A DNA stretch of 63,241 bases, filler included, from Stramenopiles sp. TOSAG23-6 (GCA_900128565.1; 4 parts of 4 records of this genome joined end to end with filler, not necessarily neighbours in it); one strand, 5' to 3'; counted from the whole stretch's first letter, positions 4,814 through 56,036 are shown. Notes: a model not told the origin generated them from the letters alone. Numbers and translations: made by a program.

Positions 4814-6408
4814 ATGTATCATACATTTACCAAATTGGATGTTGAGGATGTAGATGCTGAAATTGATGCATCTTTGGATACGTGGAGTAAGAAGAGAAAA
4901 CGCGTATTGGGAGGTGTTTTGTTGTTTTCGGCATTATTTCTTATGATCAACACTGTCAGCTTGAGGGGGGATACTTCTTTTCGAAACCTTGCCTCGGATA
5001 AGGAATCGGAGAGCAAACATGAAGTTCAAAACGAACACCACGAGGAACGACGCCAAGAAATGAAAAAAAAACATCATGAGGAAGAACAGCACAAGGAACG
5101 TAAGCACGAGATGAGAAAAAAGCATCACGAGGAAAAGATTGCTATCAAAAAGGAACATGAGAAGTTGACGAAAGAATCTGGAAAAGATAAAAAGTTGGAA
5201 AAAGGTTGGGAAAAGATTGAGAAAAAAGACAAAGATGAAAAACCGAAAACAATTAAAAAAGTTCAAGCTCGTGGAAACCTAGCTTTGCAACGTGTATTGG
5301 ATGATGAACATATCGTACCAAGTGGTTTAGTCTGGGTTGGTCATTCTCCTCCTGACACAGACTCTGTATTTGCTGCGATCGGTGCTGCACACTTGTTCCA
5401 CGGAGAAGCTGCGATTGGTGCACCAGAAAATCCAGAATCTGAATGGTGTTTACAACACTTCAAGCTTCCAACACCAAAATTGACAACAGAGCCCAAATTT
5501 CAAGAGGAAGGCATCAAGTGGGGGATTGTTGATCATGGTTCCTCTGGAAAACTTTCCCCGGGTGTTGTTGAACGTAATATTGAAGTTGTTATTGACCATC
5601 ATCAACTTGCTGAAGACGAAGTAAGTCAAAAACATCCAATTAATGTGACTATTCGTCCATGGGGTTCTACGTGTACATTTTCATTATGAACTTATAATTA
5701 ATTTATTTTTGTATGAAAATTTCGTACCCTAACGATTTTTTTCATGATTTCGTTTTTTTTTTTCACAATACATGTACAATATTGGCATATATGTATGCAG
5801 ATAAGCGTGTTACTGTGCCTGAAGATATTGCTGGGGGATTATTTTGTGGGATTGTATCCGATACTCTCAACTTAAGATCTCCCACTGCAACAGATTTTGA
5901 TCGCAAGGCGTTAAATGCTCTCGGTGATATAATTGGTCTTAATAATGAAGCAAAAAGAATTGAATTTGCACGTGCTTTATTCACTGCCAAAAGTAATGTT
6001 TCACACTTATCAATGAAAGAAGTTGTTCTTTTGGATTTTAAAAAATATAGTCTCCCAAATGATGAAGTAAAAAAATTTGGTTGGGGCAGTGGAGAAACTG
6101 TAAATATGGAAGAAACTATCGCTAAAATTGACGAAATAAAAACAGCAATGCTTGAAATAAAGAATGAAATGGGATTGGTATACATATTTTATTCGATTAC
6201 TAATATTGATCCTACGGTTTTAAAACCATTTACGTATATTGTTGTAGCTTCGCCTGAAGATGAGGAATTGGCAAAGAAGGCATTTCCAAACGGGAAACCA
6301 GTCCCTGGAAAATCAGGTTTAATTGACGTAGGAGAGCTAATATCACGAAAAGTTCAATTTATTCCAGGCGTGGAGGATGTTTTAGAAAGTGGAACTTCAG
6401 AAAAGTAA
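4814..6408 (+). CDS. Family II (DHH/DHHA2, Mn-dependent, PpaC-like) inorganic pyrophosphatase with N-terminal membrane anchor (exons 4814-5672, 5774-6408)
   Basis: Motifs GHSPPDTDS, IVDH, IDHH, RPWGSTCTI (across the junction), GIVSDTLNLRSPT, DFK, SRK; hydrophobic VLGGVLLFSALFLMI. Confidence 0.9.
5673..5773 (+). mobile_element. Introner-family intron I6, 101 nt, GT...AT
   Basis: acgt|GTACATTTT...TTCGTACCCTAAC...TTCACAATACAT|gtaca; no AG inside; restores GSTCTIL. Confidence 0.85.
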
Positions 6409-19342: not shown

Positions 19343-19802
19343 TTAGAAAACTTTTTCAATTGTTTTGGGATCTATCCATTGATCCCACTCATCATTAAAT
19401 GATTTATAATGAATTTTTAAAAGAGGTCCCACGTAGTTTTTTTTCACAATAGCATCAAATAAAATTTTTTCTTTGCCCCAACACGCAACTACGGAATCAC
19501 CTTCACTAAACATTGGCCTATTTTCATTTGATATATCATTCGTAACAAATGTAGTATCTTTCGGCATCAATTCATCAATTAGTTTATACTCGTCAAATTT
19601 TTTATCCCATTCATTATAATGGACTTTCAGGGCATTTGCTTTACGTTTTATACTAATTATTGTAGCTTTTCGAAACTTGGAATCGTATGATTTTATTAAG
19701 ATTTCATCACCAACATGGACCTCGTATGACGTCATTTATTTTTGAAAAATATATCAAATTCAAAATGTATTAGGCTCAAATTCAAAATTCATATAGCACA
19801 AC

Positions 19803-19859
<57 letters not shown>

Positions 19860-22760
19860 TATACACAAGGTAGGAAAAAAATAAATAAAAATTCCAATAA
19901 TATATTTCAACAATACATACGAAATTAAAATGAATAATGATGAAAAAAATAAATAAAAATTCCAATAATATTATCAACAATACATATGAAATCAAAATGA
20001 ATAATGATGAAAACGTGCATTTCAAAATTTTCTTTTGTTCCTTTTTCTGTTTTCTTCGATGTTTTTTTTTTTAAACGGTCTTTTCCGCAGACTCGACATC
20101 GTAGCACTTTATGACTGTTTAATAAAGTGCAATACTTGCAACTCCATTCCTTTTTCTCTATATATACAATTAACCCACAATCAGCAATATTTTGTTTATT
20201 TCTATGTTCCTTTATTTTGGAAATAGACTTAGGGTTAGGTTTCTTTTTTTTTGTATTTTGTATGTCTTTATAATGTCCAGTATTATTTGATTTGTCTGAT
20301 GGATCCAAAGTGTTCAAAATACTATTTTTTGTATTATTTTTTGTACTATTTTCTGGATGATTTACTACTGATACACTTCCATCTGGATAAGATATACAGG
20401 TGTCAAGATGTTTTTCTTCATTCTTTGAAGCACTAATAACTTTACTCATATTCGATATTTTTTGGAAAATGTTTTTGCATCTATCCATCAGATTGTCAGT
20501 CTCNTTTTTTTTNCNTTTCGTCAGNTTTTGACAGTAAAATTGACAAACCAAATCCTAACGACGTTGTTGCATCATGTATACGTTCTTCAATGAATGCCAG
20601 CATTACATCAATACCAGATAATAATAGTCGCCAATCCCATTTATTATCAAATACTTGAGGAGATGCTGAGAACGTAAATCCAACAAAATCTACATTCGCA
20701 TAACTTTGAACTAAATGGCGTAAAGCACGAAGAAGAGTCAAAGTTTTTATCGAGCATATACCAATTTTATTAGGGTTAGGGTTAGGGTATATACCAATTT
20801 TATTCTCATGACAAAATCGCATATTTTTATGAGTTATTTCGTTTGAAGTTGCGCTACGATTTGTTCTAGATCTCTTATTTTGTTTTGTATTCAATTCATT
20901 TTTATCTGAAAAACATCTTTTATTTTTAGAGTTTCCATTAGAGTTAGTTGTAGAGTCATTTAATTTGGAAAAATATTTCAAAAAAAATCTTGAAAAAAAA
21001 TGTTAGGTATAAAAGTTCGTACGAAAACCAAAAAAAAAAAACAAAAAAAAAAAAATTTAGAATTTGAAAAAAAATAATACATACATTGAATTTATCTTGA
21101 GGTTTCTTTTTTTCTATAATTGATCTTACATTTGGCGCATGTAAGGCATGTAAAAAATCTGCACCAGCAAATATTATATCGAGCATCGATTGAACAGCAT
21201 TCCAAACAATTTTTCGATGATTTATAGCATAAGGCCACATAGAATTCAGGCTACATTTTGTATCAAACGAATTTCGAATTTGCGTGTTGCGCTTATCTTT
21301 TGAATTCCCTTGTGAATTAGACTTTGTGTCGCATTTTGTACCTAATATATTTATACCGCGTTCCCCGAGCCAATGATGATCCTCAACACCGACCAAGTAC
21401 TGTGAAAAAATATGTCAAATTTGAATTTTGTAAGGTATGAAATTTCAAATTTGGTTTAAAAAAAAAAAAAAAAAAAAAAATCTTGAGCTACTTACATATA
21501 ATAGCCAGATCGTATTAATTTTTGTCTATTTTTTAATGAAGATTGTTTTATTAACTGTGAATTGGGGAATGCATTTGAAAAGAATCTTGGTATAGATTTG
21601 ATACCTAAATGAAACGTTTTACCTACAATCAAGGGAATGTCTTTTCCCCCGAAATGTCCTAGGGTTAGGGGTTTTCCCTCGAAATGTCCTAGGGTTAGGG
21701 GTTTTTTGGTTGGAAATTGTCGGATTATAAAAAGAGTCTCCGGTGGTAATATTAAAAGATCACCAGTATTAATACAATGATTCCATATACGTGCGTAATC
21801 AATCATTGGGCAACCATGTAATAAATTCTCCAATGGAGAATTATTTTCTAACTTTCTAGGGTTATTTTCTAAATTCGTAGGGTTAGGGTTTCTAGTGTTT
21901 GACTTATTATCAGTAGGGTTAGGGTTTCTAGTGTTTGACTTATTATCAGTTTGAGATTGCTGGTCTACAAAGAAATTCGGTAATAACCATGCCTTATCTT
22001 CTCTGTGTATTGCTATAATTTCTACACATCCACTGATACACGAAATAATTGTATTAAAAGGATGCTGTTCCCAATTACCAAATTCATTATTTTTGGAATG
22101 TCCAATAGTTAAAAATTGAAAAGAATCTCCTGGAAACGAATGACTTGAAATATCAGCTGATGTATCAGATGTATCAGATTGTATAGAATTAGAATTTCCT
22201 AATTTGGTTTTATTACCACTTTGAAGCCGTAAGATATCTAACCCTAGACATTCAGGCAATCTAAATCGGAAACGCTCGGCTCCTTTTGTAACACCAAATT
22301 TCCAATTATTGATTTTGTATAATAAACTTCTTCTAGACGATACGTGGGGCTTGGAAATTAGTTTATCGTCTTTGTCTTTTTTATTTTTCAAATGTTTACC
22401 ATCGCCGGATAAAATATGTAGAGCTTCGCGAAGTTTCTTCATAACTGTAGATCTTGGTGTACCGTCTGGAAAAATCTCTTGTATGGGAACTAGTTCATCC
22501 CCCAACATAGTTATTAGATAATCACTGATTGTACCATCATTATTAAGCCACTGATTTGCAAAAGGACAAAAACAGTAATCATCAACAATTTCTGAACTAT
22601 CTGATACAAGGTTAGTGTGACGCGATCCAAAACCAGATTTATACGAAATAACTATGGGGTCGCCACTACAAATATACTTTCCAATAGTTTCTTCGAGTCC
22701 TTTCTGTCGAATACTAATCACCTCTAACGGTAGAAAAGAGGTGAAGGTGTCACGTAACAT
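19343..22760 (-). CDS. Putative chromatin protein: cupin/JmjC-like region, RanBP2-type zinc finger, two Tudor-knot/chromo-barrel domains (3 introns; frameshift near 20500 at ambiguous bases)
   Basis: Five collinear ORFs joined by introns I10-I12; WSCKYCTLLN..RCRVCG; VHYNEWDKKFDEY and IHYKSFNDEWDQWI; GDLLILPP cupin-like motif. Confidence 0.6.
19734..20018 (-). mobile_element. Diverged family intron I10, 285 nt, GC...AT, enlarged by internal duplication and microsatellite
   Basis: gaaat|GCACGTTTTCATC...GAGCCTAAT...ATATTTTTCAAAAAATAAAT|gacg; restores frame (FEMTSYEV). Confidence 0.7.
19803..19860. repeat. (TAGA)n microsatellite inside intron I10
   Basis: agatagatagat... read directly. Confidence 0.95.
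20958..21084 (-). mobile_element. Introner-family intron I11, 127 nt, GT...AT
   Basis: ttcaat|GTATGTATT...TTTCGTACGAACTTTTATACCTAAC...AAATATTTTTCCAAATTAAAT|gactct; phase 0 join. Confidence 0.8.
21395..21495 (-). mobile_element. Family intron I12, 101 nt, GT...TT
   Basis: tatat|GTAAGT...TTTCATACCTTAC...CATATTTTTTCACAGTACTT|ggtc; the nearby CAG gives an out-of-frame join. Confidence 0.7.
21650..21950 (-). repeat. Two in-frame tandem duplications (30 bp and 36 bp), each unit carrying TAGGGTTAGGG
   Basis: KPLTLGHFxG x2 and TDNKSNTRNPNP x2. Confidence 0.85.
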
Positions 22761-23074
22761 CAATGAATGTTATAACATTAAAACAATTATTCCTTAATCA
22801 TATGATTCATATCATATTGATGATTCTGAATATTTCTGATGAATAGAAAGAATCTCAAGTACTCACGACTCACGAGACGAGTCAAGTCACTCAAGTGACA
22901 GTCACGACACAAAAGAAGAATTCAAATGATTTATTGAGATTTCGTGTTTTGCATAAGATATATCGAACGTTTCAAATAAAGGACATGTTGACTGACCCAC
23001 TCTAACCAACTTTAACAAAACTTATATCAAAAGCATTCAGAAAGTGAATAATTATTGTACGGCTGAGATTAACT

Positions 23075-26000
23075 ATGGTTATTGTTGTTCCAGATTTCAC
23101 AAAGGGTCCAAGTTCGTGTATGTCTCCGACAATAAGACCTCGCACAGTGCGCAGCATACTACGTGACACCAGTAGAGAACTAATAAAGCCTTCGCGTACT
23201 CCGTTGCCTCATGCATCTACCTTTAGAGAAAAAGATGAACTTGAAGGATTAATAAAGCAAAAGGAAATCAAGAAAATCCAGGCTAGTAGGAGACGACAGA
23301 AAGCAAAAATACAAATGCGTAAAGACCGGATCGTCAGGAGGGGTGCTAGAATTTCCCCAGCGGAAGAAGCCGCTAGGACGGTCGTACCAGGCTTAGATTC
23401 TCCGAAAGATAAGTCTTACATTGGTAAAAATAACAGCGAATGGCGTCCATTGGATTTTGCACCTTTGCCGCTACCAGAATTTGGTATAGTTCGTAGTAAT
23501 GTGCGTATTCATAGAGGTAAGTGCAATTCGAAGAAAGAAAAAGCACTAAAAACATTGTCTGAAAAGGGATTCGCCGATCCTTTGACAGGAATAGTTTCTC
23601 TTATGGGACATACTCCACACAGAAATAATAAAATAGACAATGTTCAAAGTGTAAAATCTGTAAAGAATCAAAACGTCGGCCATAACACGAACAGGAAACA
23701 AAAGTTACTATACTTTGATTTGGGATATGGTCATGGACACTCGAAAGAACACATTGTCGAAGACAACTTTGAAGAGACTTCTATGAATGCAACTGGGGAG
23801 GATAGTTCTCAGAATAATACTAGAGAAAAGAGTTTCCAAAATACTACCAAACAGGGTAACTCTGAAATAGAACAAAATAGTGGTGATCTGGATAGCAAAA
23901 ATCATAAAGTATCAGAATCTGATAAAAGTATTAATGACGCAACAGCTGCTGAATTACTTCTTAAGGGTTTTCGTCGTCGTAAATCTAAGGTGAAGGCAAC
24001 GGAGAGTTTAGCCGATATTTTAAAATTGGCAAAGAACCAGAAAGATGGTTTATATCGACATTTGGGAGAATTAGAACAAGAGCAAGTTTATTTAAATATG
24101 CATAATTGGGTAAACAATTTCAGTCGTGAAAAAACAGAGTATGCTTCGAACGACGTATTTCTTCAAGTAAAGTTGGCATCTGTTTTTTCCATTACGTCAG
24201 ACATGTCTACAACCTCAGATCTCTCAAGAGATAGGGTACATGCTATTCTACAACTTTTGATTGAATATGGTGAAAGACTTGGGGAAACATCACCATTGGC
24301 TATTGTTGCTTTAGCAGTTTGTAAACATTCGATAATGCATGCACGCGAACCAGAAGGTCAAGGCGAAGCACACACGACAATTGAAAATCTTACAGCGCTC
24401 TTTTCAGGACAAAGAGTTGAAAGTGATGAAGAATTGCAGATTAGCCTTGCGATGCTGAGTATATTAAGTGGTGGTAATTCGGTACAAGAACGTTGGAAGT
24501 TCTTGCGAAGGCATTTACTATATTTCAATGCGTATGCGCGAAATAAGGGCAAATTATATATGGAAAAGAAAAGACGTAAAGCTATAGTTTTTAAGCTTGC
24601 GCGACGTGATAGACAACGAGTAGTTGAAAAGCGCGCAGCTGAGAATATAAGAATGTGTTGGAGTTCGGCATTTCTTTTGCCTTTTCTTCTTCACTGGAAA
24701 AAGTTTGTCTTAATGAAGGAAGGTAAGAGAATTCAGGAAGTTGCTGCGCATTTTCTTAATGCTGTTAGAAGGAAGAGTACTGTTTCATACTTTCAATCGT
24801 GGGTAGTTTACGTAGAACAGTCTAAATGTCGTAAGGCTCTTGCATTAAAAGAAGGACAGTTAAAGCGTATACGCATCTTAACCGGAAATGTCAAACGTGT
24901 AAAACAGTCCATACTCAACAAACAGAAAGAGAAGGAAATTGTTGCTGCCAAAGTTAAAGAAATTCAAGAAAAACTTGATGATGCCCTCCGTATACTTCGC
25001 TTACCAGAAAGACAGCCCCCAACACTAGCTTCAATCCTGAAAGGGTTCTGTAGTGCAGCAATACCATTAGAGCGTGTGCTTGACTGTGGGTCACACGATA
25101 TTTTAAATGATATCTGTCGAGGAGGCTCAGGTACAGAAAGATTTCAGCCCATGATGATGTATGATTCATCGGGTAATAGTAAAAATGTAGGTGAAGAAGA
25201 GCAAGAAGATCCTTGGGATGAAACGAAAGAAGAAGAAATCAGGTCTTGGGTACCAGGTAAACATCTACTTACAGTGGTTAAAGAGAAAACACCAGCATTC
25301 AGACCATTTAGTACTCGAGTGGGACACAGATTACTTCGCTGGTTGAATTTTCAAGTTGCTGAAAGTGGAATTTTAACTGAAGAAATCTCTAAATTAATAA
25401 ATGCGACGAATGGGGAAAGCATGTATTTGGCAAAGCCCCTTCAAGATGGTAAACTTTTGACAACTATTATCCGCACCCTTTCGAAGAAAGAATTTGCAAT
25501 GAACAGAACAAAACTCATATATCCTTCGTTTTTCAGGTGCATTCATGTCGAGCGAAATGATGCTACAGGTACAAAAGAAGGTGTGTACTACTGGGCTCCA
25601 GGTCACGTCATTCCTCGAATGAAATATGAGCATATTGGACCAGGTTTCAAACTATCTGAAAAAGAATGGCTAGAACGCTTTCCTGAAAATGAAGAAGAAT
25701 TGGTCCCTGGGAGTTTTGGTTATTTAACCCGAGAAGAGTTGAATCAGATGACTAATGAACCTATTGCCTTTGATGATGCAAAATTTGCATCTTTGAGCAA
25801 TAAAGAGGTTCGTTGGGTTTATGTAGCATGGCTGAGAAATGGTGTGCGTATTGTGCTCACCCCAGATGAATTTAAACAACGATTTCCAGGTGATAAAGGT
25901 TTCGATTTTAAAAAAATGGTATCTCTTGAATCTTTATCTTGCCTTAAAGCTGCTCTGTCCGAGATACAAAATTTATTTCAGTGTGGTCGTTTTGTAAACA

Positions 26001-27797
26001 CCACTGAGAAAATTACAGGGAAAACAGAACCTCCTACGGCAGAGGAACTACAGATCCAAGCCGCAAGACTTGAAAGGTTAAAACAACGTGAATTATCAAC
26101 AGGTATCGTTGTACATGTCATGAGTAAATATTGTGGTACTCGGGTTGCCATACCAACTGAAAGTGTATTAGAGCCTTTCGCCTTCGCTCTAATTGGTCAA
26201 ATTTGCTGTCTCCATCCAAATACGCAAATAACAGCACAAATGCAAGTTTACCGTGACAAAGCAACGGTTGCCGCTTGTGAAGCTATTCAAAAAAAGTTGT
26301 TTTGGATCAATTCGCACATAATTCGAATTTTCTATCATAATGATGTCGCACCGGTAGATCTAAGCTTGGATGAGTTAGATGGGCGTATTACTAAGCTTAG
26401 ATCTGTGCGACAACAGCTATTCGAAAACTATATAGATGCAATGAATCGAATGCAAGTATGCCGCGCCGAGCGAGCTGCTTTCAAAGAGTGGACTAGCGAC
26501 ATTATACATGTTTCTAATCAGTCACTGTGCACTACCATACTTTCTCGGAAAGTGCGCAAAGAAGAAGATTTGGATGATGGCACTTATACTACTGTTGATT
26601 CTGTACAATTGCAGGCAACTTTCCAGAAAATCGGAGGAGAAATTGTCAAAGATAGTACGCTACAAGAAGACGAAATCAAAAAAATATCCCAAGTTCTTCG
26701 CCAACGAATTCGTGATTTAAAGCGCATTTTTGCGTTTTACTGTGCCATGGGGACATCAAATGATGGTAATGATGATGAAGTCGGTGGCGAAGCTTCATTA
26801 GATAAGGCTGAATACTGGCGCTGGGTAAAAGATTGCAAATTTCAGAAGAATCGTAAAGCTTTGCCTTCAGTTCGACTCGATTTAATCTTCCAAAATGCAA
26901 TGACCGATTATAGTAAAACAGGGAAAGCTCGAATAGCAGGATTATCAAGCAACGACTTGGTTGCAAAACAATGGATCAATTCATTGGTTCGCATTGCTTG
27001 TTATCGTTTTCAACATGTGAAGCCGCCATTAAAATTGCATAAACGCGTGGAGAAATTATTACACGAATGGATAATTCCTAATGCATGTATGTTTTATTTT
27101 TTTTCAAATTCGAATGTTTTTTTCGTACGAAATTTTGTACCTAACAAATTTTTTTTCAAATATTTTTCTAAAATACATGCTCTGTCGACATAGATGTGTT
27201 CCGCGATCGGGTGGCTTTAAAAGAAGTTCAAGCTCGTCTTACAGCGATGCGAAGATTCTTGAAGCCAATATTTAATGAATATGCTGCTGATGACGACAGT
27301 GATGCTGCTATTAATTCACTTGGCACTGTCAATGTAAATGAATTAACTACATTTGCAAAAGAATGTAATTTATTTGGTCCTTTGTTTGGATATCGATCAC
27401 TGCGAACAATATTTTGCTACTGCCAACAGGAAGAGGAAGCATTAGAGGAAAACGAAGAAGATGGAGAAGAGTCAGAAATGGTATATTCGGAATTTAAGGA
27501 GGTGGTCGTTGCAATAAGTTGTTTTATGCGACCTAATCCATATGTAACTAGTATGTATTATTTATTACACTTTTGTATTCATATATCCAACGTATTACCC
27601 ATTTTTCTTGTTTACTACACAGCAGTTTTAACACTTGTATAAATATTCATCATATATATACTTTTCTTTTCAATATCAACAACACTACAGTGGAAATCAA
27701 TGCTTATAATTTTGTAAATGAAATGGTGATGCCTGCTTTAGTAAGTTTACCACGATTTGGTGGTAAAAAAAAACTTAAATGGAAGAAACCAAAGTAA
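23075..27797 (+). CDS. Large hypothetical protein with coiled coil and C-terminal EF-hand-like region (exons 23075-27086, 27179-27550, 27691-27797)
   Basis: 1372-aa ORF plus two exons joined in frame; LKRIFAFY...LDKAEYWRWVKDC, MVYSEFKEVV. Confidence 0.7.
27087..27178 (+). mobile_element. Introner-family intron I13, 92 nt, GT...AT
   Basis: gcat|GTATGTTTT...TTTCGTACGAAATTTTGTACCTAAC...AAATATTTTTCTAAAATACAT|gctct. Confidence 0.88.
27551..27690 (+). other. Canonical GT-AG intron I14, 140 nt, lacks the family core
   Basis: acta|GTATGT...CACTACAG|tggaa; in-frame join. Confidence 0.8.
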
Positions 27798-27905
27798 TTT
27801 TATATAAATGTCAATGTAACTATTTTAACGAATATTGCTATTTATTTTTGTAGTAAAGATATATCTCGTAACTATATCCAACTACTACATTCGTATATCA
27901 CAAAT

Positions 27906-30900
27906 CTACCGTTTACCTCGATATCTTAACCCAGAAGAAGTAGAAGACGCAGAAGAAACATTCTTACTTCCCGTCGAAGTAGACTTTGTTACATTTTCGG
28001 ATGTACTACTTAATAATTCCGCTGCGGCAGCTTTCCGTCTACGCCAGTACATAAAGGCGCATCCTCCCCACACAAAAATATTTCCAGAACAGAAGATCAG
28101 TAAACCACCAAACACTTTAATAAATGTCATAAATACTGGCATTAAATCAGAAAGAGTGGTTGCCTTCGCACTTTCCATCATTGCTGAAAATATATCTGGA
28201 GAAAATACCCACGTACAGAACCTATCCCATACAAACGTACCAACTAATGCTAGAGAGACGAGATACATTACATGAAAACGAAATGCATCATCAGGAAATG
28301 GTTCCAAATGAATTAAACCATTTACATATGGGCTTACAGCCCACGCGCATGCACCCACGCCAGCAAAACATAAAAATAACGACAAAAATAAAGCGTGATT
28401 TTCAATTGTACCTTTCATCCATGGTCTACCTTTGTAGTTTACAAATAAAACAGCAACGATTGATGATGTTTCTACCAAAAATACGACTGTATTCATCAAA
28501 TTTGGCATAAATGGACGTGACCACATAAACATAATATCTGCAAAAGGGTCGGCAGTTACATCTGTAATGTCAGATTCTGAGGAATCCGATATTGCTTGGA
28601 GTGCATCATAATCATCATCATATGTCTTTGCAGCATTGCGATTGAAAGCAACCACAGCTTTTAATGCTTTTGGGCCCATTGCTTCTGTTGCTAGATGTAC
28701 TGCTGAAACCATACAATACAAATGTATGCAGGCCTGGCCAATCATTGAAATAAATATTGTCGGGTGAAATAGTGAATGCAATGGCCGTGTACGATGCATT
28801 TTATCTACAGGAGTTGCGTATGAAAAGGCTAAAGATGCAATCATAATAAGCCAAGACGAAGCCATCAACTGCCGTTCCGAACTTCGTGCACCTTCAAGTG
28901 ATAAAGCTGAGAGAGTGTACGCTGAAATTATACATTCAAGCATCATATATAGTAAAAAAATATGTTTGAAGTTTGAATTTTGTTAGGCGCGTGACAAAAT
29001 TGGACAACAAAAACAAATTAAAATTGGAATGAATGATGAAAACATACATGATCTGTTGCTGTTGAAGGGCACTAAGTAAAGTACAACGCCCTTGGCGAAT
29101 AATATCAACAACCGTGCGAATCGTTGGCGTCCTTGAGGTAAAAGGAGCAGCCACTGATGCATCACCTGGGCGCACAACAGGAAGCATACCTCCCATATCT
29201 TCCATATCACCTAAAGCATCCATTGGATTTCCAGAATCTGCTTTGTACACATTATTCTTCGAACCAAGTCTTCTTGATTCCATTTGCATTTCATTTTTGA
29301 CTCGCAAAGTTACATTCTTTAAAGCAGTCAAATTTGCCATGAAACCTGTTTGCCCTTCTGCCGCAAGTCTTGCAAGTTCTTCTTCCAGCATTTCTTTTTG
29401 TTTTCCTGCCAATTCCTTTTGTTTTGTAGCGAGAATAGCTTTAGATTTTGCCTGCATCACCGCCTGGGAACGTTTTAAATCTTCGGCCTGTTTATTCAAC
29501 TCATCTTCAGTACTTCCAGCACTATTTTCAATTTTGGATAATGATGTTTTATCATCTTTAGCTGTCGTTGTGTTGGCATTGCCGTACCCTGAAAGCAATG
29601 CTAGGCCAACATCAGCTTGTTTTAATGCACCAACGTCATTACCACCATCACCACACATAAGAACATGGTGACCTTTACGCCGCTGCATCTCACGAATAAG
29701 TATTGTGAAAAAATATTTCAGAAATTTGAAATTCGTTAGGTATGATATTTTAACTAAAAATAAATGAATTCATTAAAATAATCAAAACGTACAATCTTGG
29801 CTTTTCCTTGAGGAGACATTCGAGCAAATACTTGAATAGCATCAACATGATCCCACAACGTTCCACCACTTTTCTCTGCTGCCGCTAAGAGAACTTTTTC
29901 TGTTACAACCAAATTATTATGTTTTGCAAGTTCAGGAATTCCTAAAGCATTAAAGGGAACAGAAATACGTTCTGATACATCACCCGTTGCAGAATTCCAT
30001 GTAAATTGTTCACCAGTACTATCAACAGTCAATACCAATGACGAATAGCTATCCGTACCGATTTTAGATAAGACATTCTTCTTAGAGTCACTTCCATTTT
30101 GTACAACATTGTCACGGCATATACCCACCTCTTTAGCAACATGAAGCGCTGTCAAAGGCGCATCACCTGTAATCATTGCAACGGAATGGTCAGATTCACG
30201 CAAGGATCCTATTACTATACGCGAGTCTTTGCGAATCATACAAGTGAATGCAATAAAACCAGCGAAATGTAAATTGCTTTCTACCCACTCACGAGATGGA
30301 CCATCACCACCTTCTGTACCGCATTCTCCCTTTGCACATTGTTTATAAGCGAGCGCAAGCACACGCATTCCATGTTCGGCAAGATGTCGATAACTCTCAT
30401 CATACCAAGATGGAGCAGCGCCTTCAGCAAGTAATGATCGTAAAGCTTCAGGGGATCCTTTGACAAGACAATATTTACCACTGGAAAGGCCATTTTGGCG
30501 CCCCTCAACTTTACACACAACACTCATTCTCTGAAGCTTCGACGAGAAATGATACCGATGAAGTATCTTTGAAGATGAAACAGCAGAATTTCGAGCTTTT
30601 TTTTCAACACTACAAATTTTATTACGAATATTATCTATATCCTTTTGTAAATCGGAAATTTGCATATTTTGTTCAGGAGTTGCAGGTGCATTACCCGATT
30701 TGATTAAATCATGTAAAGCCTTCAATTTTTCAGATACCATTTTTTCACGCTTTTTGAGATTAATTGTAGTACCAGGAGTAGCAGTGTTAGTATCTGCATT
30801 AAATTGCCATTGAACGCCTTTTAGAGCCGCGAGTTCTATAGGATCACCTACCATACCAACATCTTTAACCTTTACCAAAGAGTGACACGATGCAAGAACT

Positions 30901-31613
30901 AATGCAGCCTCGGCGGATGATTCAGGTACTGGGCTAGTTTTACGAGGACATTTAGACACATCAAACTCTCCTGACTTTTGTTTTGCTTTTCCTACCTTAA
31001 GATCAGGTTCTGAATTAACAGTAACTACACCAACAGGCGATAACGTATCCGTTGTAATTGTCCCAGTCTTATCAAACAAACAATGTGAAACCTTTCCAGC
31101 ATACGGAACTCGAAATGGCTCGGTGCAAAAAAGACCCGCTTTCGTGAGAGACATGAGGGCAGTATTTACAGCTAATGCCATTTGCAGAGGAAGTCCTCGA
31201 GGAACGACAGATGTGATTATGTAATGAAGAAAAATATTTTGAGTTCGAAATTCGTTAGGTACAAAAACTTTGTTTTTTTTTTAATTGTTTTGGATTGTTT
31301 TTAATTGTTTTGGATTGTTTTGGATTGTTTTGAATTGTTTTGGATTGTTTTGGATTATTTTGGATTATTTTGGATTAGGTGCAAAAAAAGTTTAGGTAAA
31401 AAAACATACATAATGACACATTTCAATAATAATTCATGTGTCGTTCGATCACCCTTTTCAAGTCCTTTCTTCAAGACATATCCAGATGCAACTAAAGCAA
31501 AGAATAATAACAATAATAATGCTAAACCAATCTCTTTGGAATCTCCAGAGACTTTTTGAGTCGATGCAAACTCAATCATCTGCATTAACTCACCTTGCGA
31601 TGAACTGAACCCG
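27906..31613 (-). CDS. ATP13A1: P5A-type ATPase (Spf1/ATP13A1), 5'-truncated (exons 31613-31410, 31218-29793, 29697-29048, 28944-27906)
   Basis: TGFSSSQG, ITSVVP, FDKTGTIT, FSSKLQRMS, MITGD, MCGDGGNDVGALKQA, GDASVAAPFTS, IRQGRCTL, VNYKGRPW. Confidence 0.92.
28945..29047 (-). mobile_element. Family intron I15, 103 nt, GT...AT
   Basis: atcat|GTATGTTTT...GCCTAAC...CATATTTTTTTACTATATAT|gatg; no AG inside. Confidence 0.88.
29698..29792 (-). mobile_element. Family intron I16, 95 nt, GT...TT
   Basis: aagatt|GTACGTTTT...CATACCTAAC...AAATATTTTTTCACAATACTT|attcgt; TT on both sides. Confidence 0.82.
31219..31409 (-). mobile_element. Family intron I17, 191 nt, GT...AT, enlarged by a 10-bp tandem array
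   Basis: attat|GTATGTTTT...TTGTACCTAAC...AAATATTTTTCTTCATTACAT|aatc; restores CVIIITSVVP. Confidence 0.9.
31281..31378. repeat. 10-bp minisatellite (TTGTTTTGGA-like) inside intron I17
   Basis: tggattgttt repeated with variants. Confidence 0.9.
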
Positions 31614-31668
31614 GTGTATTTTGGAAAAATATTTCAAAAAAAAATTCGTTAGGTACAAAATTTCGTAC
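31614..31668 (-). mobile_element. Family intron I18 (3' part), inferred end ...AC
   Basis: GTACGAAATTTTGTACCTAAC...CCAAAATACAC|cgggttc (TGF motif); 5' end lost at contig end. Confidence 0.85.
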
Positions 31669-31768: not shown

Positions 31769-31820
31769 TACGAAATTTTGTACCTAACAAATTTCGAATT
31801 TAATTTTTTTTACAATATAT
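31769..31820 (+). mobile_element. Family intron I19 (3' part), ends ...AT
   Basis: TACGAAATTTTGTACCTAAC...TTTACAATATAT|gtggata. Confidence 0.82.
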
Positions 31821-34800
31821 GTGGATAAGTCGGAATAATATTTGTTTTGATACCGAAAACCCACACTTTTTTGCTGCGCGTGTAGCTGCCGCTCTTCGTG
31901 GTCGCTCGGAATTTGAACAACAAGTTGCATATGGAGTTTATATCGATGAAATGCCAACAGGGGGGGGGTTACCTAATCTTGCAACACATTGGATGGATCG
32001 TATTATTGACGTTGCATGTAACACGAAATTATTACGGGGAAAGCAGGAGAAATTGAATGTTGGGGTTCTGACTGTAATGGCCAATAATGAATATCAACGA
32101 CACATGAATAAGATTATTTTTGACTTGTATATGAAAAGTAATATGAAAATATTTTCGCCTCTAGGGGTAAGACTTCCGTCCACACTGAATGTTCACAAGA
32201 TTCCTCAAAATGGAACTCTTCCTCTTGAGCTCGCAAGAGATAATGGTGGTTTCGTGGATAATGAAGCTCCAACATATAATCAAAACAAATCATTGTTTAC
32301 AAATGTTTGTATTTATACCAGCACTGAAAGTGCATTCAAAACATTGGAGCTAGTTGCGGCNGAAAACACGAAATTAGATAGTCAATTAGCCTACACCATT
32401 TCTGAAAGTGATAGCCCGCCTTGTAGACTTCAGAACTTCATTGCCGTACAAACTAGCCAAATGAAAGAAATCTATAACTATATGGATGGTGATTGGGTTG
32501 CAGCAGTTAAGGATCATATTTTGACTAACATGAAAGATGAGGGGCGTGAATTTAATCTTAAAGAATCCAATCGGGAAAAGTATGTATTGACTCAACTATC
32601 TCGATTTTTACGACTTGTAAACTATACAATGTCAGATTCACTGAGATACTTTGTACTAAACTCAATCGAAGCATACAAGAATATGATACTTTCTGCGGGT
32701 GGAGGAACAGAATATATTGAATTTGTTAATGAAGTAGTTCCAAACTCAGAAGATGTTTCTTCTCTTGAAGTAGCTGCGGATGATGAAGCCAAAGAGGAGC
32801 CTGCAGATAATCCTGCAAAAATAAAACCTGAGCATGAAGATTCTGCATCAACCGACAAGCCTGATGAACTAAGTTCACCTCTGTTTATACTTGATGTTGC
32901 CATCGCAGAAGTTGAGACTGTAAAAAAGAAAAGTTCTAAAAATTCCAAAAAGGCCAAAAAGGACAAAAAGGACAAAAAGAGTGGTATGGATAAGAAAAAA
33001 AGTACCAAAAAGAAAGATGTAAAAGACGAAGAGACAGTTATACCTAAAGAACCTACAGTGAAGCGTAAGAATTTTGTGTTCCAAACAAGCCCCGAAGATA
33101 TTCACAAAACAGTTGTTGAACTGATGGAAACTACTATAACCACTCTTGGAGGTATTCCTATTGTCGAACGCAAAGTGATGAATAGACTCTATTGGAAAAC
33201 AAAACCTTCAATCGCAAGCTGTACACTTAAGGACGATGCTGTCAAAAACACCACTAATGAGATTAATGAACACTTTCAGGCATGTATCGGACCGGTCAAC
33301 AAATATCTATCTAAAACATTCAAAAAGTATGTCAAGTTTATTCGAAGTGACATTGATACTCTTCTCGATGCCCTAGAAAAAAAGTATGATGGTTCGGAGG
33401 GCGGTGATCCGGAAGAAAATATGCTTGCTATGGTGGAAGAAGTCACTAAAAAGGTGAAGAAACACAGCAAAGAAATCAAATCAATTGCGACTAATATTCC
33501 TGACGCAATTCGAATTAATATCTTTGAAATATCGTGCCTCCATATTAAAAATGTATTGATTCATAAACATCAGAACTTCAAACGGCGCTTATTAAACGTT
33601 CTGGCTGAAAGTAATAACAAAGCATGTCAAGCCCTAAACGAGCGATTTGAAGTAATAATGGAACATTTTCGTCTACCAGTAGATAAAATAGAACAGCTGG
33701 ATGAAATGGAGGAATATATCAAAGGATGTCCTGATCTTGTCAATGAAATTAATCTTAAGGCGAAACGCATTCATGAGAAGTTTGGTCTTCTTGATGAAAT
33801 GAAATTTCAGTTGGCAGATGATGATTTCATCAACAAATGGACACTTTATGGCTATCCTCACTACATATACGAAAAAATGAAATCATTGAAGAAAAGTAAT
33901 GCAATAAAGATGGAAGAATATTCCGAATCCTTGAAAGATGAACAACAACTCTTCGATGAAGAACTTCTGAAATTAGATAAAGAAGTACAAGATCTCCAAA
34001 AATATAATGAGTTATCTAAACTGAAAGAAGTTGTACCTATATGTACGAGTATAAGAAAGCGGCTTGAAAGCATGAAGCTTCAAACTCAGCTCTTCAACTC
34101 GCGTGAATCCCTTTTTGGATCAGATATTACAGAATATTCTGCTTTAAATGGTATTGCAAAAGCTTTCCTTCCTTTTGAAAACTTATGGATGACGTGTTCT
34201 CGTTGGCAAGAAGGACAAAAGAGTTGGTTCAAAGATCAGCTTTTAACTTTGAATCCGGAACAGATTGAAAAGGATGTTGCTGAATTCACCAGAAAACTGA
34301 ATAAATCAGCCAAAGCGATGAAAAAATCTGGTTTGAGTAAAATTGCTGATGTAGCAAAATCTACAATGAAAGAAGTAAAACAATTTTCACACCTCGTGCC
34401 TCTTGTTATGTCTGTTGTGACCCCAGGTATGCGCGATCGTCACTGGGAAGCAATGGCAACGAAACTGTCAATTGATATTGATCAATATTCTCGAGATTTC
34501 ACACTTGAAAAACTGCAAAATATGGGAGTGCCTGAGCATTTGGAAGAAGTCACTAAAATTGGTGAAATTGCTAATAAAGAGTATCAAATTGAAAAAGCAA
34601 TGGAAATGATGCGCGATCAATGGAAACCCATCGTACTAGTTGTGGAACCATACAGAGAAACTGGTACAAGTATATTTAAAGAAGCTGATGTTATAATTGC
34701 ACTTCTTGATGAACACATTACAATGACCCAAGCAATGTCATTTTCCTCTTTTAACAAACCATTTAAAGAAGATATTGAAGCCTGGGATAAAACTCTTTCA

Positions 34801-37800
34801 ACCGTATCGGAAGTAGTCGAAGAATGGTTAGCAGTACAGCGTAATTGGTTGTATTTGCAACCCATTTTTGATAGCGATGATATCAAAAGACAATTGCCTA
34901 GTGAAAGTAAGCGGTTCTTCACTGTTGATAAAAACTGGCGCCAGACTATGAAAGATGCGTCAAAGAATGCTTTGGCTATTGAGTTCTGTGACAGTGAAAA
35001 ATTATACGAACGATTTCGCGAAAGCAATAATTATCTTGATATGGTACAGAAAGGTTTGAGTGATTATTTAGAAACAAAGCGAGCAGCATTCTCTCGTTTT
35101 TATTTCCTTTCAAATGATGAATTGCTTGAAATTCTTTCTGAGACGAAGGATCCAACAAAAGTACAACCCCACCTTAAAAAATGCTTTGAGGCCATTGTCA
35201 GTGTTAATTTCAATAAGCAATCTGAAATTACATGTATGCGTTCCAGGGAGAAAGAACAGGTCCAATTTGTTACTAACGTAAAAACTAAAGATATCCCTGT
35301 AGAATCGTGGATGAATGACTTACAACAAGCAATGTGTGATGCAGTTAAATCTAATTTTTACGCTGCGGTACAAGATTATCTTGTGGTCCCAAGAACAGAA
35401 TGGATGCAAAAATGGCCAGGTCAACTTGTACTTAATTGTAGTCAAGTTCATTGGACAAAAGAAATGGAGGCTGCAATGGAAGCTAAAGGCGCAGAAGGTG
35501 TCAAGGAATACTACCAAAAACAGCTTCAACAATTGAATGATATGGTTGCGCTAGTGAGAAGTCCAAACCTTGCTAAACTTGCGCGATCATCTGTTGGCGC
35601 TCTTTCGGTAATTGATGTACATGCAAGAGATGTTTCAGTTGAGATGATCAAGATAGGAGTTAAAGATAAAAAGGCATTTCTTTGGATGTCTCAAATTCGA
35701 TATTACTGGATCAGAGATACTGACGAGAATGGCGAAGATTTGAACCCTGGAGTGGAAGATTGGACCACAGGAAAAGCATTTGGTATAATGGTTACATCAA
35801 AACGACGATATTCTTGCGAATACCTTGGTAACTCCTTTCGGCTTGTGATAACACCTCTGACAGATAAATGTTACCTCACACTTATGGGTGCTTTGGAGAT
35901 GATTCTTGGTGGATCTCCCGCCGGGCCTGCTGGGACAGGTAAGACAGAAACCGTTAAGGACTTAGCCAAGGGATTAGCTAAGCAATGCGTCGTATTTAAT
36001 TGTTCCGATGGAATGGACTACAAAATGACTGGTAAATTCTTTAAAGGATTAGCTTCATGTGGTGCTTGGTGTTGTTTCGATGAGTTCAATCGTATTCTAA
36101 TTGAGGTACTCTCCGTTATTGCACAGCAAATTATGACACTCCAGGCTGGTGTGTTGCAGGGAAAGCACCGAGTTCTATTCGAAGGAACTGATATCGCTCT
36201 GAGCTGGGAATTTGCTGTGTTTATTACAATGAATCCCGGATATGCTGGACGCACTGAACTGCCTGATAACCTTGCTGCCTTATTCCGGCCAGTCGCTATG
36301 ATGGTTCCAGATTATGCCATGATTGGCGAGATTATGCTCTTTGCATACGGATTCGGCAGTGCCCGTAAATGTGCACAGAAGATGGTTGCCACATTTACCC
36401 TGTGCTCCGAACAGTGTTCGAATCAACCACATTATGATTATGGTATGAGAGCTGTTAAAACAGTTATTGTCGCATCTGGTAACTTGAAACGTGAAGAGCC
36501 CGACCTAGATGAAGAAATGCTGATGCTTCGCGGTCTTATTGACGTGAATGTTCCTAAATTTCTCAGTCACGATTTACCATTATTTGAAGGTATCATGGGA
36601 GATTTATTTCCTGGTAAAACTAAGCAATATATAGATTACGGGGCGTTATTATCGTGTATGAAGATAAAATGTAAAAGGCGACAATTGATGCCAACCCCTT
36701 GGTTTATTGAAAAGGTTATTCAATTGTATGAAATGATATGTGTAAGACACGGACTGATGGTTGTAGGTCCTACGAATGGTGGTAAGAGTAGTTGTATCCG
36801 TGTTCTTCAAGAGACTTTAACTATGCTCAAAGATGAAGGAGTTGAAGGAAATCGCTTTGAAACTGTATGGGTGAAATATATCAATCCCAAATCTATTACT
36901 ATGGGTCAATTATATGGTTGTTTTGATCCAAATACACACGAATGGCAAGATGGTGTCCTTGCGAATATGATTCGGCTTTGTGTCCAACAAGCTGACTCAT
37001 CCCTCAAGTGGGTGCTCTTTGATGGCCCAGTAGATACACTATGGATAGAATCAATGAATACTGTATTGGATGATAATAAAAAGTTGTGCCTTAATTCGGG
37101 CGAAATGGTTGCTCTGTCGTCTGAAATGACAATGATGTTTGAACCTGCTGATTTGGCTGTAGCATCACCTGCTACAGTAAGCCGATGTGGTATGATTTAT
37201 ATGCAGCCACATTCGCTTGGTTATAGTCCTATTACTGATTGTTGGTTAGAAAATATCCCAGCGTGCTTCTCTAACGAAATGAAAATAAAATTGATGATTC
37301 TCATGGATGTACTGCTTCAACATACAATGACATTTTTGCGCCGCAATCTCAAGGAATGCGTCCCTACAGTAAACCATCAACTACAGTGGTCGTTACACAA
37401 ATTGTTGGATTGCTTCTTTGCTAGTTTCATAGTTAAAGATGGTGAAGAACCCATAAAACCAGAGGTAATTGCCAATTTTGAGAAGAATATTGAGCAAGTC
37501 TTTGCATATGCTTTCACATGGAGTGTCTGCGTTACAGTCAACCTTGAAGGACGTAAAAAGTTAGATTCTTTCATTCGCAATACTTTAGATTCAAATAACA
37601 TATGTCAGACACCTAACATTCCAAATGAAGGCATGATTTACGACTATTGGTTTGATATAGAAACTACGAAATGGATTTATTTTCAAAAGTTGGCCCCAGA
37701 ATATGTATTTGACGGGTCACTTGGCTTCAACGAACTTGTTGTGCCCACGATGGATACGGCTAGATACACAAAAGTACTTGATATGCTTTTAATTAATAAT

Positions 37801-40800
37801 CATCACGTCATGATGTGTGGGCCTACAGGTACAGGAAAGACAGTAAATATTTCTAAACACCTTCAATCTGGCATGGACAAAATGTACATCCCTTTATGTT
37901 TCACTTTTTCTGCACAAACTTCAGCCAATCAAACACAAGACATTATCGATGGTAAATGTGACAAACGGAGAAAAGGTGTATTTGGACCAATGGCAGGCAA
38001 AAGATATTTAATTTTTGTAGATGATTGTAATATGCCACAACGAGAGATATATGGTGCGCAGCCGCCAATCGAATTACTTCGACAGTGGCTTTGTGGCCAA
38101 GGGTGGTACGATAGAAAGACTTTAAAGTGGCGCCAAATTATTGATTCTACTCTTATTTTAGCATGTGGTCCGCCCGGGGGTGGTAAAAACCCCGTAACAC
38201 CACGATTCAAGCGCCATTTTAATTGTATTGCATATACCCAATTAGAAAATTCAGTAATGTATACAATTTTCAAGTCAATATTTGAAGGATTTTTGGCTAA
38301 TTTCGAGCCAGAAGTTCAAAAAATGTGCGAATCTATAGTATGGTCGTCAATAGAAATTTACAACACCACTGTTAGTGATCTTCTGCCGACCCCTATAAAG
38401 CCCCATTATACGTTTAATACTCGCGATCTTGCCAAGGTATTCCAAGGCCTTTTGATGGCTACTAATCGCAAAATAACTTCCTCAATACAAATAGCTCGAA
38501 TGTGGGTACATGAAATTTGTCGTGTATTCGCAGATCGTTTAGTTAATGACGAAGATGAAGGTTGGTTCAAAAATTTAGTCTTTCAAAGGTTAGAAAATCA
38601 ACTCCAATTAGATAAGAGTGAAGTGCTACCTAACGATTTACTCCTCTATGGTGATTTTATGATTCCTGGGGCAGATCCCCGAATATATGCAGAAGTAGTT
38701 AAAGTAGATGAAGTTCTGCCAATTGTTAATGAATATCTTGCTGATTATAATGCGGAATCCAAAAATGCGATGAATTTAGTATTATTCACCGATGCCATTC
38801 GACATGTCAGTCGAATATCTCGTATTATTAGACAACCTCTTGGAAATGTATTATTGCTTGGTGTTGGTGGTTCAGGGAGGCAATCCCTTACTAGACTTGC
38901 AACTTTTATGGCTGAGTATGAGTGCTTTCAAGTAGAAATTGCGAAAGGGTATGGTTTACCAGAGTGGAGGGAAGATCTTAAACAATGCTTGCTCAAAGCA
39001 GGTGTTGATAACAAACCTGTTGTATTCCTCTTTGTCGATACACAAATAGTATTTGAAGGAATGCTTGAAGACATTAATAATATTTTGAATTCTGGTGATG
39101 TTCCAAACTTATATGGACCTGAGGAGATGGAACAAATTAATAATACTTGCCGTATTGATTGTCAAAAGAAGCGCATCCCACCAACAAAAATCAACATTTA
39201 TGCCCAATATATTATTAGAGTTCGTCGAAATATTCATATGGTTATTGCAATGTCTCCAATGGGTGAACCTTTTCGTCGCCGGCTTCGTATGTTTCCTTCA
39301 TTTGTAAATTGTTGTACGATTGATTGGTTCGCAGAATGGCCAAACGAAGCATTGTTATCGGTTGCTACTAATTCAATGAATATGACTGATATGGAACTAG
39401 GAGATTCTTTTGATAAAGTCGTAGACTTCTTCAAAACGATTCATCAGACCGTAGCTAACTCATCGAAAGATTTTCTTACCGAATTAGGACGACATAATTA
39501 TGTCACCCCAACATCATATTTGGAATTGCTTGATACATATAAAAAGATTATCAAGATCAAACGAATAGAAGTTGGAGATTTACGTGATAAACTTCAAAAT
39601 GGTCTCAATAAACTAATTTCTACAGGGGAAGCTGTCAATGATCTGCAAACAAAGCTTGAAAAAATGCAACCCGAGCTTGCTGCAACCCAAATTGAAGTAG
39701 ACGCCATGATTGTCACAATTAAAGCAGATACAGTTGAAGCCGATAAAACAAAAGCGATAGTGCAAGAAGCAGAAGCAGAAGCAAATATTCAAGCAGCTGA
39801 AGCCAAAGCAATTGCTGATGATGCTCAAAGAGATCTCGATGAAGCCTTACCTGCACTTGAAGAAGCAGTTGCGTGTCTGAAACTTTTGAAGAAAGCGGAC
39901 ATTGACGAGGTCAAGTCGCTGAAAACACCACCTTCGGGTGTAAAATTAACAATGGAGGTTTGTTGTGTTATGTTTTCGGTTAAGCCTGTTTTAGAAAAAG
40001 ACCCAAACAAGATGGGAGCCAAGATAAAAAATTATTTCGCCGCTTCAAAAACCAAATTGTTGTCTGATGCAAAAGCGTTTTTGGCAAGACTCACAGAATT
40101 TGACAAAGATAATATGGAGGATGCCTTGGCAACAAAATTGAAAGTCTACGTTGATGATCCAAACTTTACACCAAAAATGATTGAGAAGGCATCGAAGGCC
40201 TGTAAAGCTGTTTGTATGTGGGCTCGAGCTATGTATAAATACCACACAGTAGCAAAAGAGGTTGAACCCAAGCGTATTCTACTTGCCAGTGCACAAGAAT
40301 CGCTAGCTATTACAATGAAGAAGTTGAAGTCTGCGCAAGATCAGCTTAGTGTTGTAACTGCAAAATTAGATAAACTTGATGCACAACTTCAAGAGTCATT
40401 AACAAAGAAGGATAACCTCGCCCGCGAAGTCAAGCTATGTGCAGATCGATTAGTACGTGCTGATGTTTTGATAGGCGGCCTCGGCGGAGAAAAAATTCGA
40501 TGGGCAAAATCTGTTGATACGTTAACTCTTGCATATGATCGCCTGATTGGGGATGTACTTATTGCATCTGGAACAGTGGCTTATTTGGGACCTTTTACAC
40601 CTGGATTTAGAAAGAGAATTGTAGATATTTGGAATAACAAATTACTTTCAACCGCAGAAGTTCTTCCATTCACAGACGGATGCAATATGACTTCAGTGCT
40701 CGCTGAACCTATTCAGGTACAAGCTTGGAAGATTTTGGGTCTACCAACAGATGGTCACTCTTTAGAGAATGCAATTGTTATGGATATAGCTCGCCGCTGG

Positions 40801-43800: not shown

Positions 43801-43962
43801 AGTCGCGCAGGTATTCTTAGCACAACGGGCCACTCTACTAATTTTGTATTATGGCTTGAATTACCAGGTGGACGGGAGGATATAAAAAATAACTTGGGCA
43901 TGAATGATCAGGAGTATTGGATCAAAGCTGGAGTCGCTGCTTTTACAGCACTTCGTTATTGA
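31821..43962 (+). CDS. DNAH1: Axonemal inner-arm dynein heavy chain, DNAH1-like, 5'-truncated; one 12.1-kb exon
   Basis: P-loops GPAGTGKT, GPTNGGKS, GPTGTGKT, GVGGSGRQS; RFYFLSNDELLEIL; N-terminal WISRNNICFDTENPHFFAARV resembles the DNAH1 clade (ortholog call less certain than family call). Confidence 0.93.
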
Positions 43963-50008: not shown

Positions 50009-50327
50009 AGTCTCTGGATTACTTCTTCTACGTAATTCAATATGTGTTCTGTAATTCAGATAAAATACTTGTGTGTACCTTCCCAGGTGACACGAGTCAA
50101 AATATTTTTGAACAAACCTGCTTTTTCTAACAAAATTAATAGCTCGCATCTCAGATCTGATGATGATCGAGATCTCGATAGTGAGTTCCTCTTAAAAAGT
50201 TCAAAACAAATCCACATCATAATCTCTGGGTTTTCTTCACCAAAGGATCCATTCATTTTGTGGTATAACTAATTTTGTTTCAGTTTGGTACATTACTTTA
50301 TTAAAATCAATTGATCTATTTTGAGTG

Positions 50328-55700: not shown

Positions 55701-56036
55701 TTATTTCAAATTTATATGATTGATAAACAGTTTCAACATTAAAAAAAAATATTGTTTCCTTACTTTTTTATTCCATACGATTTTTCCGGATCCACACAAT
55801 TATAGCGAAGTGATGTTTGACCACTTCTTGCGAACGAATTTCGTGTTTTTCGTTTTACTTCAGCTCAAGTCGCATATATACTGTCAAATATATCATATCC
55901 CCCTCGTCCTCTTAAGTTCTTACCAAAATTACCGGCAATTGCACTACAAGTACTATAGGCATTTAGTATGATATATTCGCATGACACATCAGTGTCTATG
56001 CTACGATAGTAATAATAGTATATTGATCATTCCCCA

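Follow-up and report, generated by a model that had tools for sequence, protein, structure and literature searches.

The window, that is, the whole stretch of DNA analyzed (63,241 nucleotides, filler included, from Stramenopiles sp. TOSAG23-6), is gene-dense, eukaryotic and has a GC content of roughly 35%. Its minus strand carries a gene of four exons. Exon 1 (21496..22760) ends in ...RSGYY and is JmjC/cupin-like according to a weak atlas lead; exon 2 (21085..21394) contains a WPY...IVWN block conserved in the homolog P0011; exon 3 (20019..20957) encodes a CxxC...CxxC zinc-finger-like motif and has an N-rich frame break at 20504-20525, which is likely an assembly error; and the last exon (19343..19733) encodes a Tudor-knot domain. 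The exons are separated by intron I12 (21395..21495, minus strand, 101 nt, GT...TT, phase 2), which is a member of a genome-wide family, by the next intron I13 (20958..21084, 127 nt, GT...AT), and by the last intron (19734..20018), which has a GC donor, a non-AG end ...AAATAAAT and an (ATCT)n microsatellite with a duplicated 68-nt block. The window also contains long intron-free ORFs at 31804-43962, 50325-55700 and 56019-61070 (dynein heavy chain of 4,052 aa, Sec7 GEF and WD40 protein), and, judging by these very long ORFs, old introns seem to be scarce in this genome. In addition, telomere-like TTAGGG 11-18-mers occur at ten internal places (1069, 3850, 11596, 17419, 20770, 21660, 21690, 21878, 21914 and 46729). 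Several of them sit within open frames and short local duplications and encode NPNP or KPLTLG peptides that are missing from the homolog; these stretches are possibly scars of break repair. Elsewhere in the genome, the 18S gene looks stramenopile-like by its signatures, a tentative assignment, and a further hit of lower score that spans the whole eukaryotic SSU rRNA model (L052; G000:C137:3115-4595) is probably of organellar or bacterial origin.

With exon 1 as the query, HMMER found a sole homolog among 1.84 billion representatives, P0011 (820 aa). It is a single distant homolog with 22% identity over the BLAST alignment, which aligns over exons 1, 2 and 3 and whose sequence also has the zinc-finger-like and Tudor-like stretches encoded by the last exons. 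Exon 2 used alone as the query gave no match in the homolog search, and exons 1–3 gave none in Pfam. Since P0011 spans all the exons and is gap-free at the I12 junction, the ORF that ends at 21492 does not represent a gene of its own, which the original prediction had named as a possible refutation. Judged by this one homolog, exon 1 and the downstream exons are one gene.

On the minus strand, the I12 region reads ...GGC TAT TAT AT / GTAAGT (21495-21490)...ATACCTTAC...ATATTTTTT CA CAG TAC TT (21395) / G GTC GGT, where slashes mark the splice junctions. The 5' splice site TAT/GTAAGTAG (21488..21498) can form seven Watson-Crick pairs and one G-U pair with the U1 of this genome (8/11; the family mean is 10.1/11). 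The branch-site-like sequence ATACCTTAC (21430..21438) corresponds to the family consensus GTACCTAAC, with the putative branch A at 21431. The T-tract ATATTTTTT (21405..21413) is read as the anchor of the 3' end, and the alignment of the family places the 3' end at TAC-TT/G (21395..21399). Between the two lies a CAG (21400..21402), read as skipped, which corresponds to an A-to-G change at position -6 of the family block ACAATAC.

It had been claimed from the sequence that this CAG, 5 nt upstream of the inferred 3' end, is passed over, and that splicing at it would shift the frame and soon meet a stop codon. The CAG is indeed present (21402-21400) and off-frame: from the phase 2 donor, a CAG junction leads to a stop after 16 codons, whereas the junction after TT (21395) keeps the frame open as far as the next donor at 21084. 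Twelve of the 15 AGs from the I12 donor to the next intron lead to a stop, and the first in-frame AG lies 144 nt beyond the family end. An assembly indel was considered as a source of the frame clash and rejected, because both flanks match RNA-library contigs letter for letter and without gaps (21209-21442 with one substitution, 21490-21776 with no difference). Comparison with P0011 points to the same junction, with GYY/MVGVEDHHWLG opposite GYY/FNGRNDFPWFG in a gap-free alignment. The 11 residues past the family junction score 20 in register, as compared with -13 for the CAG and -20 for the in-frame TAG (21251), and none of the other 11-mers of P0011, of 658, scores as high as 20.

As for the family, the pattern ACCTAAC-N12-40-ATATTTTT had 6,921 matches in the 21-Mb assembly versus 6 for the reversed control; the number is inflated, because contigs are palindromic and duplicated, and genome-wide counts are therefore upper bounds. 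Such contigs (C2, C4, C27 and C37; C13 and C14 of assembly G000) are typical of whole-genome amplification. The window and about 0.97 Mb of other DNA of this genome contain 191 distinct family elements, and other genes (L031) carry about a dozen family copies. The ends were placed by a 3' matrix that is blind to the frame and to the last two bases and was trained on a frame-selected subset from a looser finder. The family end fits the frame in 128 of 141 frame-clear elements; among the 13 misfits, seven are mis-anchored (a family end 13 nt on fits) and six are truly off by one base. The latter are L006, L014, L037, L058, L071 and L095, of which five fit if two further exon-side bases are removed; these five would then be introns starting with AT, GT or TT, and assembly error is possible.

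Among 102 copies, defined as frame-fitting copies outside the CAG-targeted loci, the intron ends in AT in 79, TT in 9, GT in 5, AG in 5 and other letters in 4; the 3' YAG of U2-type introns is rare among them, and most introns of this marine protist seem to end in AT or TT. The family consensus is (C)AT/GTAYGTTT ... GTACCTAACR ... ATATTTTTYC-A-M-A-A-T-A-Y-A-T/G. The CCTAACR branch site is part of the definition used by the finder and can pair with the canonical U2 GUAGUA. U12-type donors have the consensus ATATCC or GTATCC; the family donor GTAYGTTT, with G at +5 in 93% and T at +6 in 99%, departs from it. A search of about 860 kb for an abundant separate class of AG/GTRAGT introns, which is a weak test, found such words unenriched (18 seen versus 21 expected).

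The closest pairs among the family copies reach a nearest-neighbour similarity of 0.91. In 93 of 128 elements, exon and intron end in the same two bases (shuffle mean 61; non-AT matches 19 versus 3), which is as would be expected of a 2-nt target duplication. The match falls from 35/42 in the most similar copies to 29/44 in the most diverged ones. In the 35 mismatched cases, AT stands at the intron end in 23 and at the exon end in 3 (p = 9e-5), so AT is either preferred at the 3' site or borne by the element; old copies show no drift to AG (3/44). The inverted ends comprise only 3-4 nt, GTA(T) and (A)TAC, and show no covariation (+4 versus -6, p = 0.29); an origin of the internal AG from maintained inverted-repeat pairing was thus unsupported.

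Two sister introns in the window have informative surroundings. The intron at 28945..29047 (minus strand, GT...AT, 103 nt) contains no AG at all and is joined in one polyA contig. The intron at 5673..5773 (plus strand, GT...AT) interrupts a gene for a DHH/DHHA2 pyrophosphatase inside its conserved motif RPWGS-TC-TILAY, and the intron's junction is set by homology (RPWGST/CTILAY versus RPWGSACTILAY in P0003). In two family-like introns, 3753-3882 and 27551-27689 (both plus strand), the end seemingly reads ...ACACTACAG, so that an AG occupies the family position; for the second, another end that keeps the frame and is not AG lies 12 nt upstream.

The explanation preferred here, with a probability of roughly three in four for the explanation as a whole, is that a U2-type spliceosome adapted to transposon-derived introns removes I12, and does so as a GT...TT intron.

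I12 itself departs from its family at several points. Its GTAAGT donor, originally called perfect, is so by the textbook consensus and not in this genome, where GTATGT and GTACGT dominate and A at +4 occurs in 2% of the 102 copies. Its branch site is CCTTAC versus CCTAACR in the family, and its end does not match the target duplication (exon end AT versus intron end TT). I12 is an old family copy altered at donor +4, in the branch site, at -6 (creating the CAG) and at -2 (AT to TT). These departures may lower the efficiency of its splicing, and a minority of transcripts from its gene may use the CAG.

Three studies supplied the four seawater metatranscriptome runs whose contigs were compared with 20526-31668. 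Pieces of 150-320 letters with 0-2 differences indicate that the organism was present in these samples. One polyA contig covers 28801-28946 and continues with 12 letters that match only 29050-29061, which is an in-frame join across the AG-less sister intron. The contig has a depth of 3.2 and a short side of 12 letters only; it is uninformative on the register, because one AT is kept, and a contig from an allele without the element could look identical. Both RNA-library contigs over I12 are unspliced, as are two contigs through the intron at 29792, and in such contigs DNA and pre-mRNA are indistinguishable. The spliced form of I12 was not among the metatranscriptome contigs over 20526-31668.

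These data bear on the possibility that the family rule is real and I12 has decayed, being retained or spliced at the new CAG with little full-length protein made. The rare donor, the CCTTAC branch site and the TT end that does not copy the AT of the exon are what such decay would leave, and the two unspliced contigs over I12 and the frame break in exon 3 agree with it. It is nevertheless considered improbable: all four exons are open and match P0011 through the last domain, the other copies with the same AG hold the family frame in 16 of 16 cases, and further introns are likewise unspliced in these RNA runs.

Removal at the family end implies that AGs are passed over, and the family as a whole is informative in this respect. 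A depletion of AG between the branch point and the 3' end, suggested earlier as a genome-wide check, was looked for and not found: an AG lies between the branch site and the end in 35 of 102 copies, in 6 of them at the position of I12. In all 16 frame-clear elements of the 17 found with an AG at -5, the family end fits the frame. In the CAG-targeted set, the frame is longer from the family end in 19 of 21 rows, and the other two were interrupted by N. Under a first-AG rule, the frame survives in only 25 of the 97 non-AG copies. The genome has 93 matches of the CAG-TAY class and 151 in which an AG closes the intron at the family position, which indicates that AG is tolerated at the end and not sought.

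The distance from the branch A to the intron end varies from 28 to 55 nt, and a fixed distance from the branch point was therefore rejected as the end rule. The distance from the first T of the tract to the intron end is 15-16 nt in 105 of 119 cases; the end tracks the T-tract together with the conserved A-M-A-A-T-A-Y block (CAATAC motif). This spacing may be either read by the machinery or simply inherited from the element. The proposal that a positional or motif-based choice of acceptor overrides AG scanning is thus supported by the frames, the homology and one contig across a sister intron, except that the position is not measured from the branch point.

One alternative is ordinary GT-AG splicing at other sites. 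The true donor and some nearby AG are in frame in 35 of 97 copies, and loose rules (any nearby GT or GC with any AG) give in-frame alternatives for 76 of 97; because such alternatives abound, frames alone cannot exclude GT-AG in single cases. For I12, the candidates are its own donor with the TAG at 21251 or a donor at 21626 with the CAG, and both are in frame. Use of the donor at 21626 instead of 21495, however, deletes a block of 43 residues conserved in P0011, lowers the bit score from 128 to 101, and relies on a site that pairs with U1 at only 6 of 11 positions. The TAG at 21251 is the eighth AG past the branch site, and its use comes at the cost of the G..D..W.G match (122 bits, with a junction score of -20). 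As the joined RNA contig also spans an intron without any AG, ordinary GT-AG splicing appears highly improbable.

The small nuclear RNAs also bear on splicing in this genome. The 5' end of U1, AAACGUACAUGG, differs from that in Rfam, AUACUUACCUGG, by three changes, U2A, U5G and C9A. The changed U1 is complementary to CAT/GTACGTTT; the complement of its 5' end, CATGTACGTTT, is the family donor plus the exon end. The three changes face the departures of the donor from the textbook sequence, namely T at +7 (100% paired), Y at +4 (95%) and T at -1 (90%). Averaged over 128 donors, this U1 pairs at 10.1 of 11 positions, as compared with 7.3 for the Rfam consensus U1 and 5.9 in the register shifted by 2 (AT-AC). 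It is the only U1 found (one locus assembled twice) and scores 54.1 bits, which is below the Rfam cut-off of 69.5. A metagenome scan for its relatives gave seven matches, with no U1 among them. The U2 GUAGUA, U5 loop 1 and U6 ACAGAGA (U6 located by pattern) are canonical. The complementarity of U1 is the strongest sign that the major spliceosome handles the family and does so in the GT register.

U5, U2, U1 and U4 are encoded head to tail by the same strand of a single contig (L054:9-645; G000:C1146), with spacers of only 2, 23 and 5 nt, an arrangement that suggests a single precursor transcript; the U6 gene is located apart (L145). A U12 snRNA gave no match in this incomplete genome, which is weak evidence. 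The small subunit of U2AF was not among the 7 of 17 zf-CCCH matches read, nor among 2 of 4 motif matches; the other 10 zf-CCCH matches are close-spaced arrays or lie within a long ORF. Because the assembly is incomplete, this result says nothing on loss.

The same evidence weighs on an AT...AC register, in which both cuts would be made two bases earlier, by a U12-like or shifted machinery, and I12 would give GYY-L-VG. Because of the 2-nt repeat, neither most copies nor the RNA contig can tell the two registers apart, CCTAAC and CCTTAC resemble the U12 branch site, and the residue F of the homolog leaves M versus L undecided. The shifted register, on the other hand, loses the pairing with U1 (5.9 versus 10.1 of 11) and produces two stops in 35 discriminating cases (NN..AC), where the GT register (GT..NN) produces none. 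In addition, 34 of the 102 copies would begin with letters other than AT, and no U12 match was found, a weak point given the incomplete genome; the AT...AC register is therefore very improbable. Equally slight is the probability of a hairpin-guided removal that bypasses the spliceosome, like that of euglenid nonconventional introns, or of an expressed allele without the element: the short inverted ends GTAT and ATAC with the 2-nt repeat do resemble such introns (PMC11282704), and the joined contig could derive from an empty allele, but the donor and branch motifs are strict, U1 is altered exactly where the donor departs from the consensus, and the inverted ends lack covariation.

The preferred explanation, removal of I12 as a GT...TT intron by an adapted U2-type spliceosome, can be outlined as follows. 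A small element, GTAYGT...ATAC, would have copied itself around the genome, leaving a 2-nt target duplication, so that the final two bases of the exon, in most cases AT, would be repeated where the intron ends. At the 5' end, the three U1 changes, which are seen in the sequence, would pair with CAT/GTAYGTTT and thus fix the GT register. The canonical U2 GUAGUA would pair with CCTAACR at the branch site. The T-tract and the A-M-A-A-T-A-Y block would position the 3' end a short, constant distance away, and YAT/G would be preferred there. A 3' site of this kind would not need AG, and therefore upstream AGs, including the CAG at -5 of I12, would be passed over. As for the reader of the 3' block, a changed or lost small subunit of U2AF, as in Fritillaria, is the leading guess by analogy.

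A further suggestion, rather unlikely, is that at both exon junctions U1 itself has switched the code of the spliceosome from AG to AT, and that its A9 may read the 3' splice site directly. Nucleotides 8-11 of U1 (CAUG) are complementary both to the exon end CAT/G and to the commonest intron end, CAT/G, which is found in 43 of 128 elements (TAT/G in 10 more). Pairing of U1 with the 3' splice site was reportedly proposed for fission yeast by Reich et al. in 1992. If this reading of CAUG is true, an AG inside an intron would be no signal at all in this organism.

Several known systems share parts of this picture; the comparisons below draw on the available portions of the cited papers. In Fritillaria borealis and F. 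pellucida, AT is the commonest 3' intron end (34% and 44%, respectively; PMC13326754; PMC11282704). As in Fritillaria, the introns here probably have a transposon origin with a target duplication forming the 3' site, the boxes of U2, U5 and U6 are conserved, and the uridine tract is kept. Unlike Fritillaria, the GT donor is kept here and one family is dominant (79 of 102 with AT, 5 with AG). Moreover, the 5' end of U1 is strictly unchanged and U2AF is duplicated in F. borealis (PMC13326754), whereas here U1 is altered at three positions, and the organism is a protist and not a tunicate.

The family also resembles introners of Micromonas, Aureococcus and others (10.1101/2022.06.06.494994; PMC12130899) in that its short, similar introns number in the thousands and sit at unrelated sites, with the element carrying the 5' site and the target duplication providing the 3' site. 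The 3' sites considered there are AG or AC, whereas the duplication here gives AT, TT or GT. Stramenopile GT-AT families are unmentioned in the main texts of these two papers, whose supplements may list this organism. Co-evolved U1 has been described in Entamoeba (ACAAAC) and Mastigamoeba (ACGUAC) (10.1101/2022.06.08.495308), where, as here, the 5' arm of U1 is altered to fit an atypical donor. The U5G change is the same as that of Mastigamoeba, and U2A resembles the extended pairing of Entamoeba. In contrast, the accessible part of that paper describes no counterpart of C9A, which pairs with exon position -1 (T and not G), and no loss of AG ends accompanying the changed donors. A majority of non-GT-AG introns is a feature shared with Amoebophrya (PMC7789003), where they exceed 60% and where introner elements have direct and inverted repeats, as the elements here may have; unlike the stereotyped ends and matching U1 found here, however, the ends in Amoebophrya are highly variable, its hairpins are long, and no U1 was found there. 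The intron passages of PMC5778133 and 10.64898/2026.04.17.719054 are silent on splice sites. A protist family of GT-AT introns with a changed U1 was not found in the literature searched, from which subscription papers were mostly absent. The family of I12 may be regarded as a variant of transposon-derived non-canonical U2 introns, with a co-changed U1.

Among splice signals, the 3' AG is the most conserved, and it is near-universal. A free-living protist in which the main class of introns ends in AT, textbook YAG sites are passed over and U1 is altered at exon position -1 would be a natural experiment on the choice of the 3' splice site; this case also bears on whether U1 takes part in this choice. 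It would represent a core RNA of the spliceosome adapting to a transposon invasion by a route unlike that of Fritillaria. Gene finders that assume GT-AG introns would break most intron-containing genes of this lineage. Since the AG lies 5 nt from the true end, I12 and roughly 90 similar copies are the sharpest test cases, and for some of these copies a single read would also be enough to decide the splice register.
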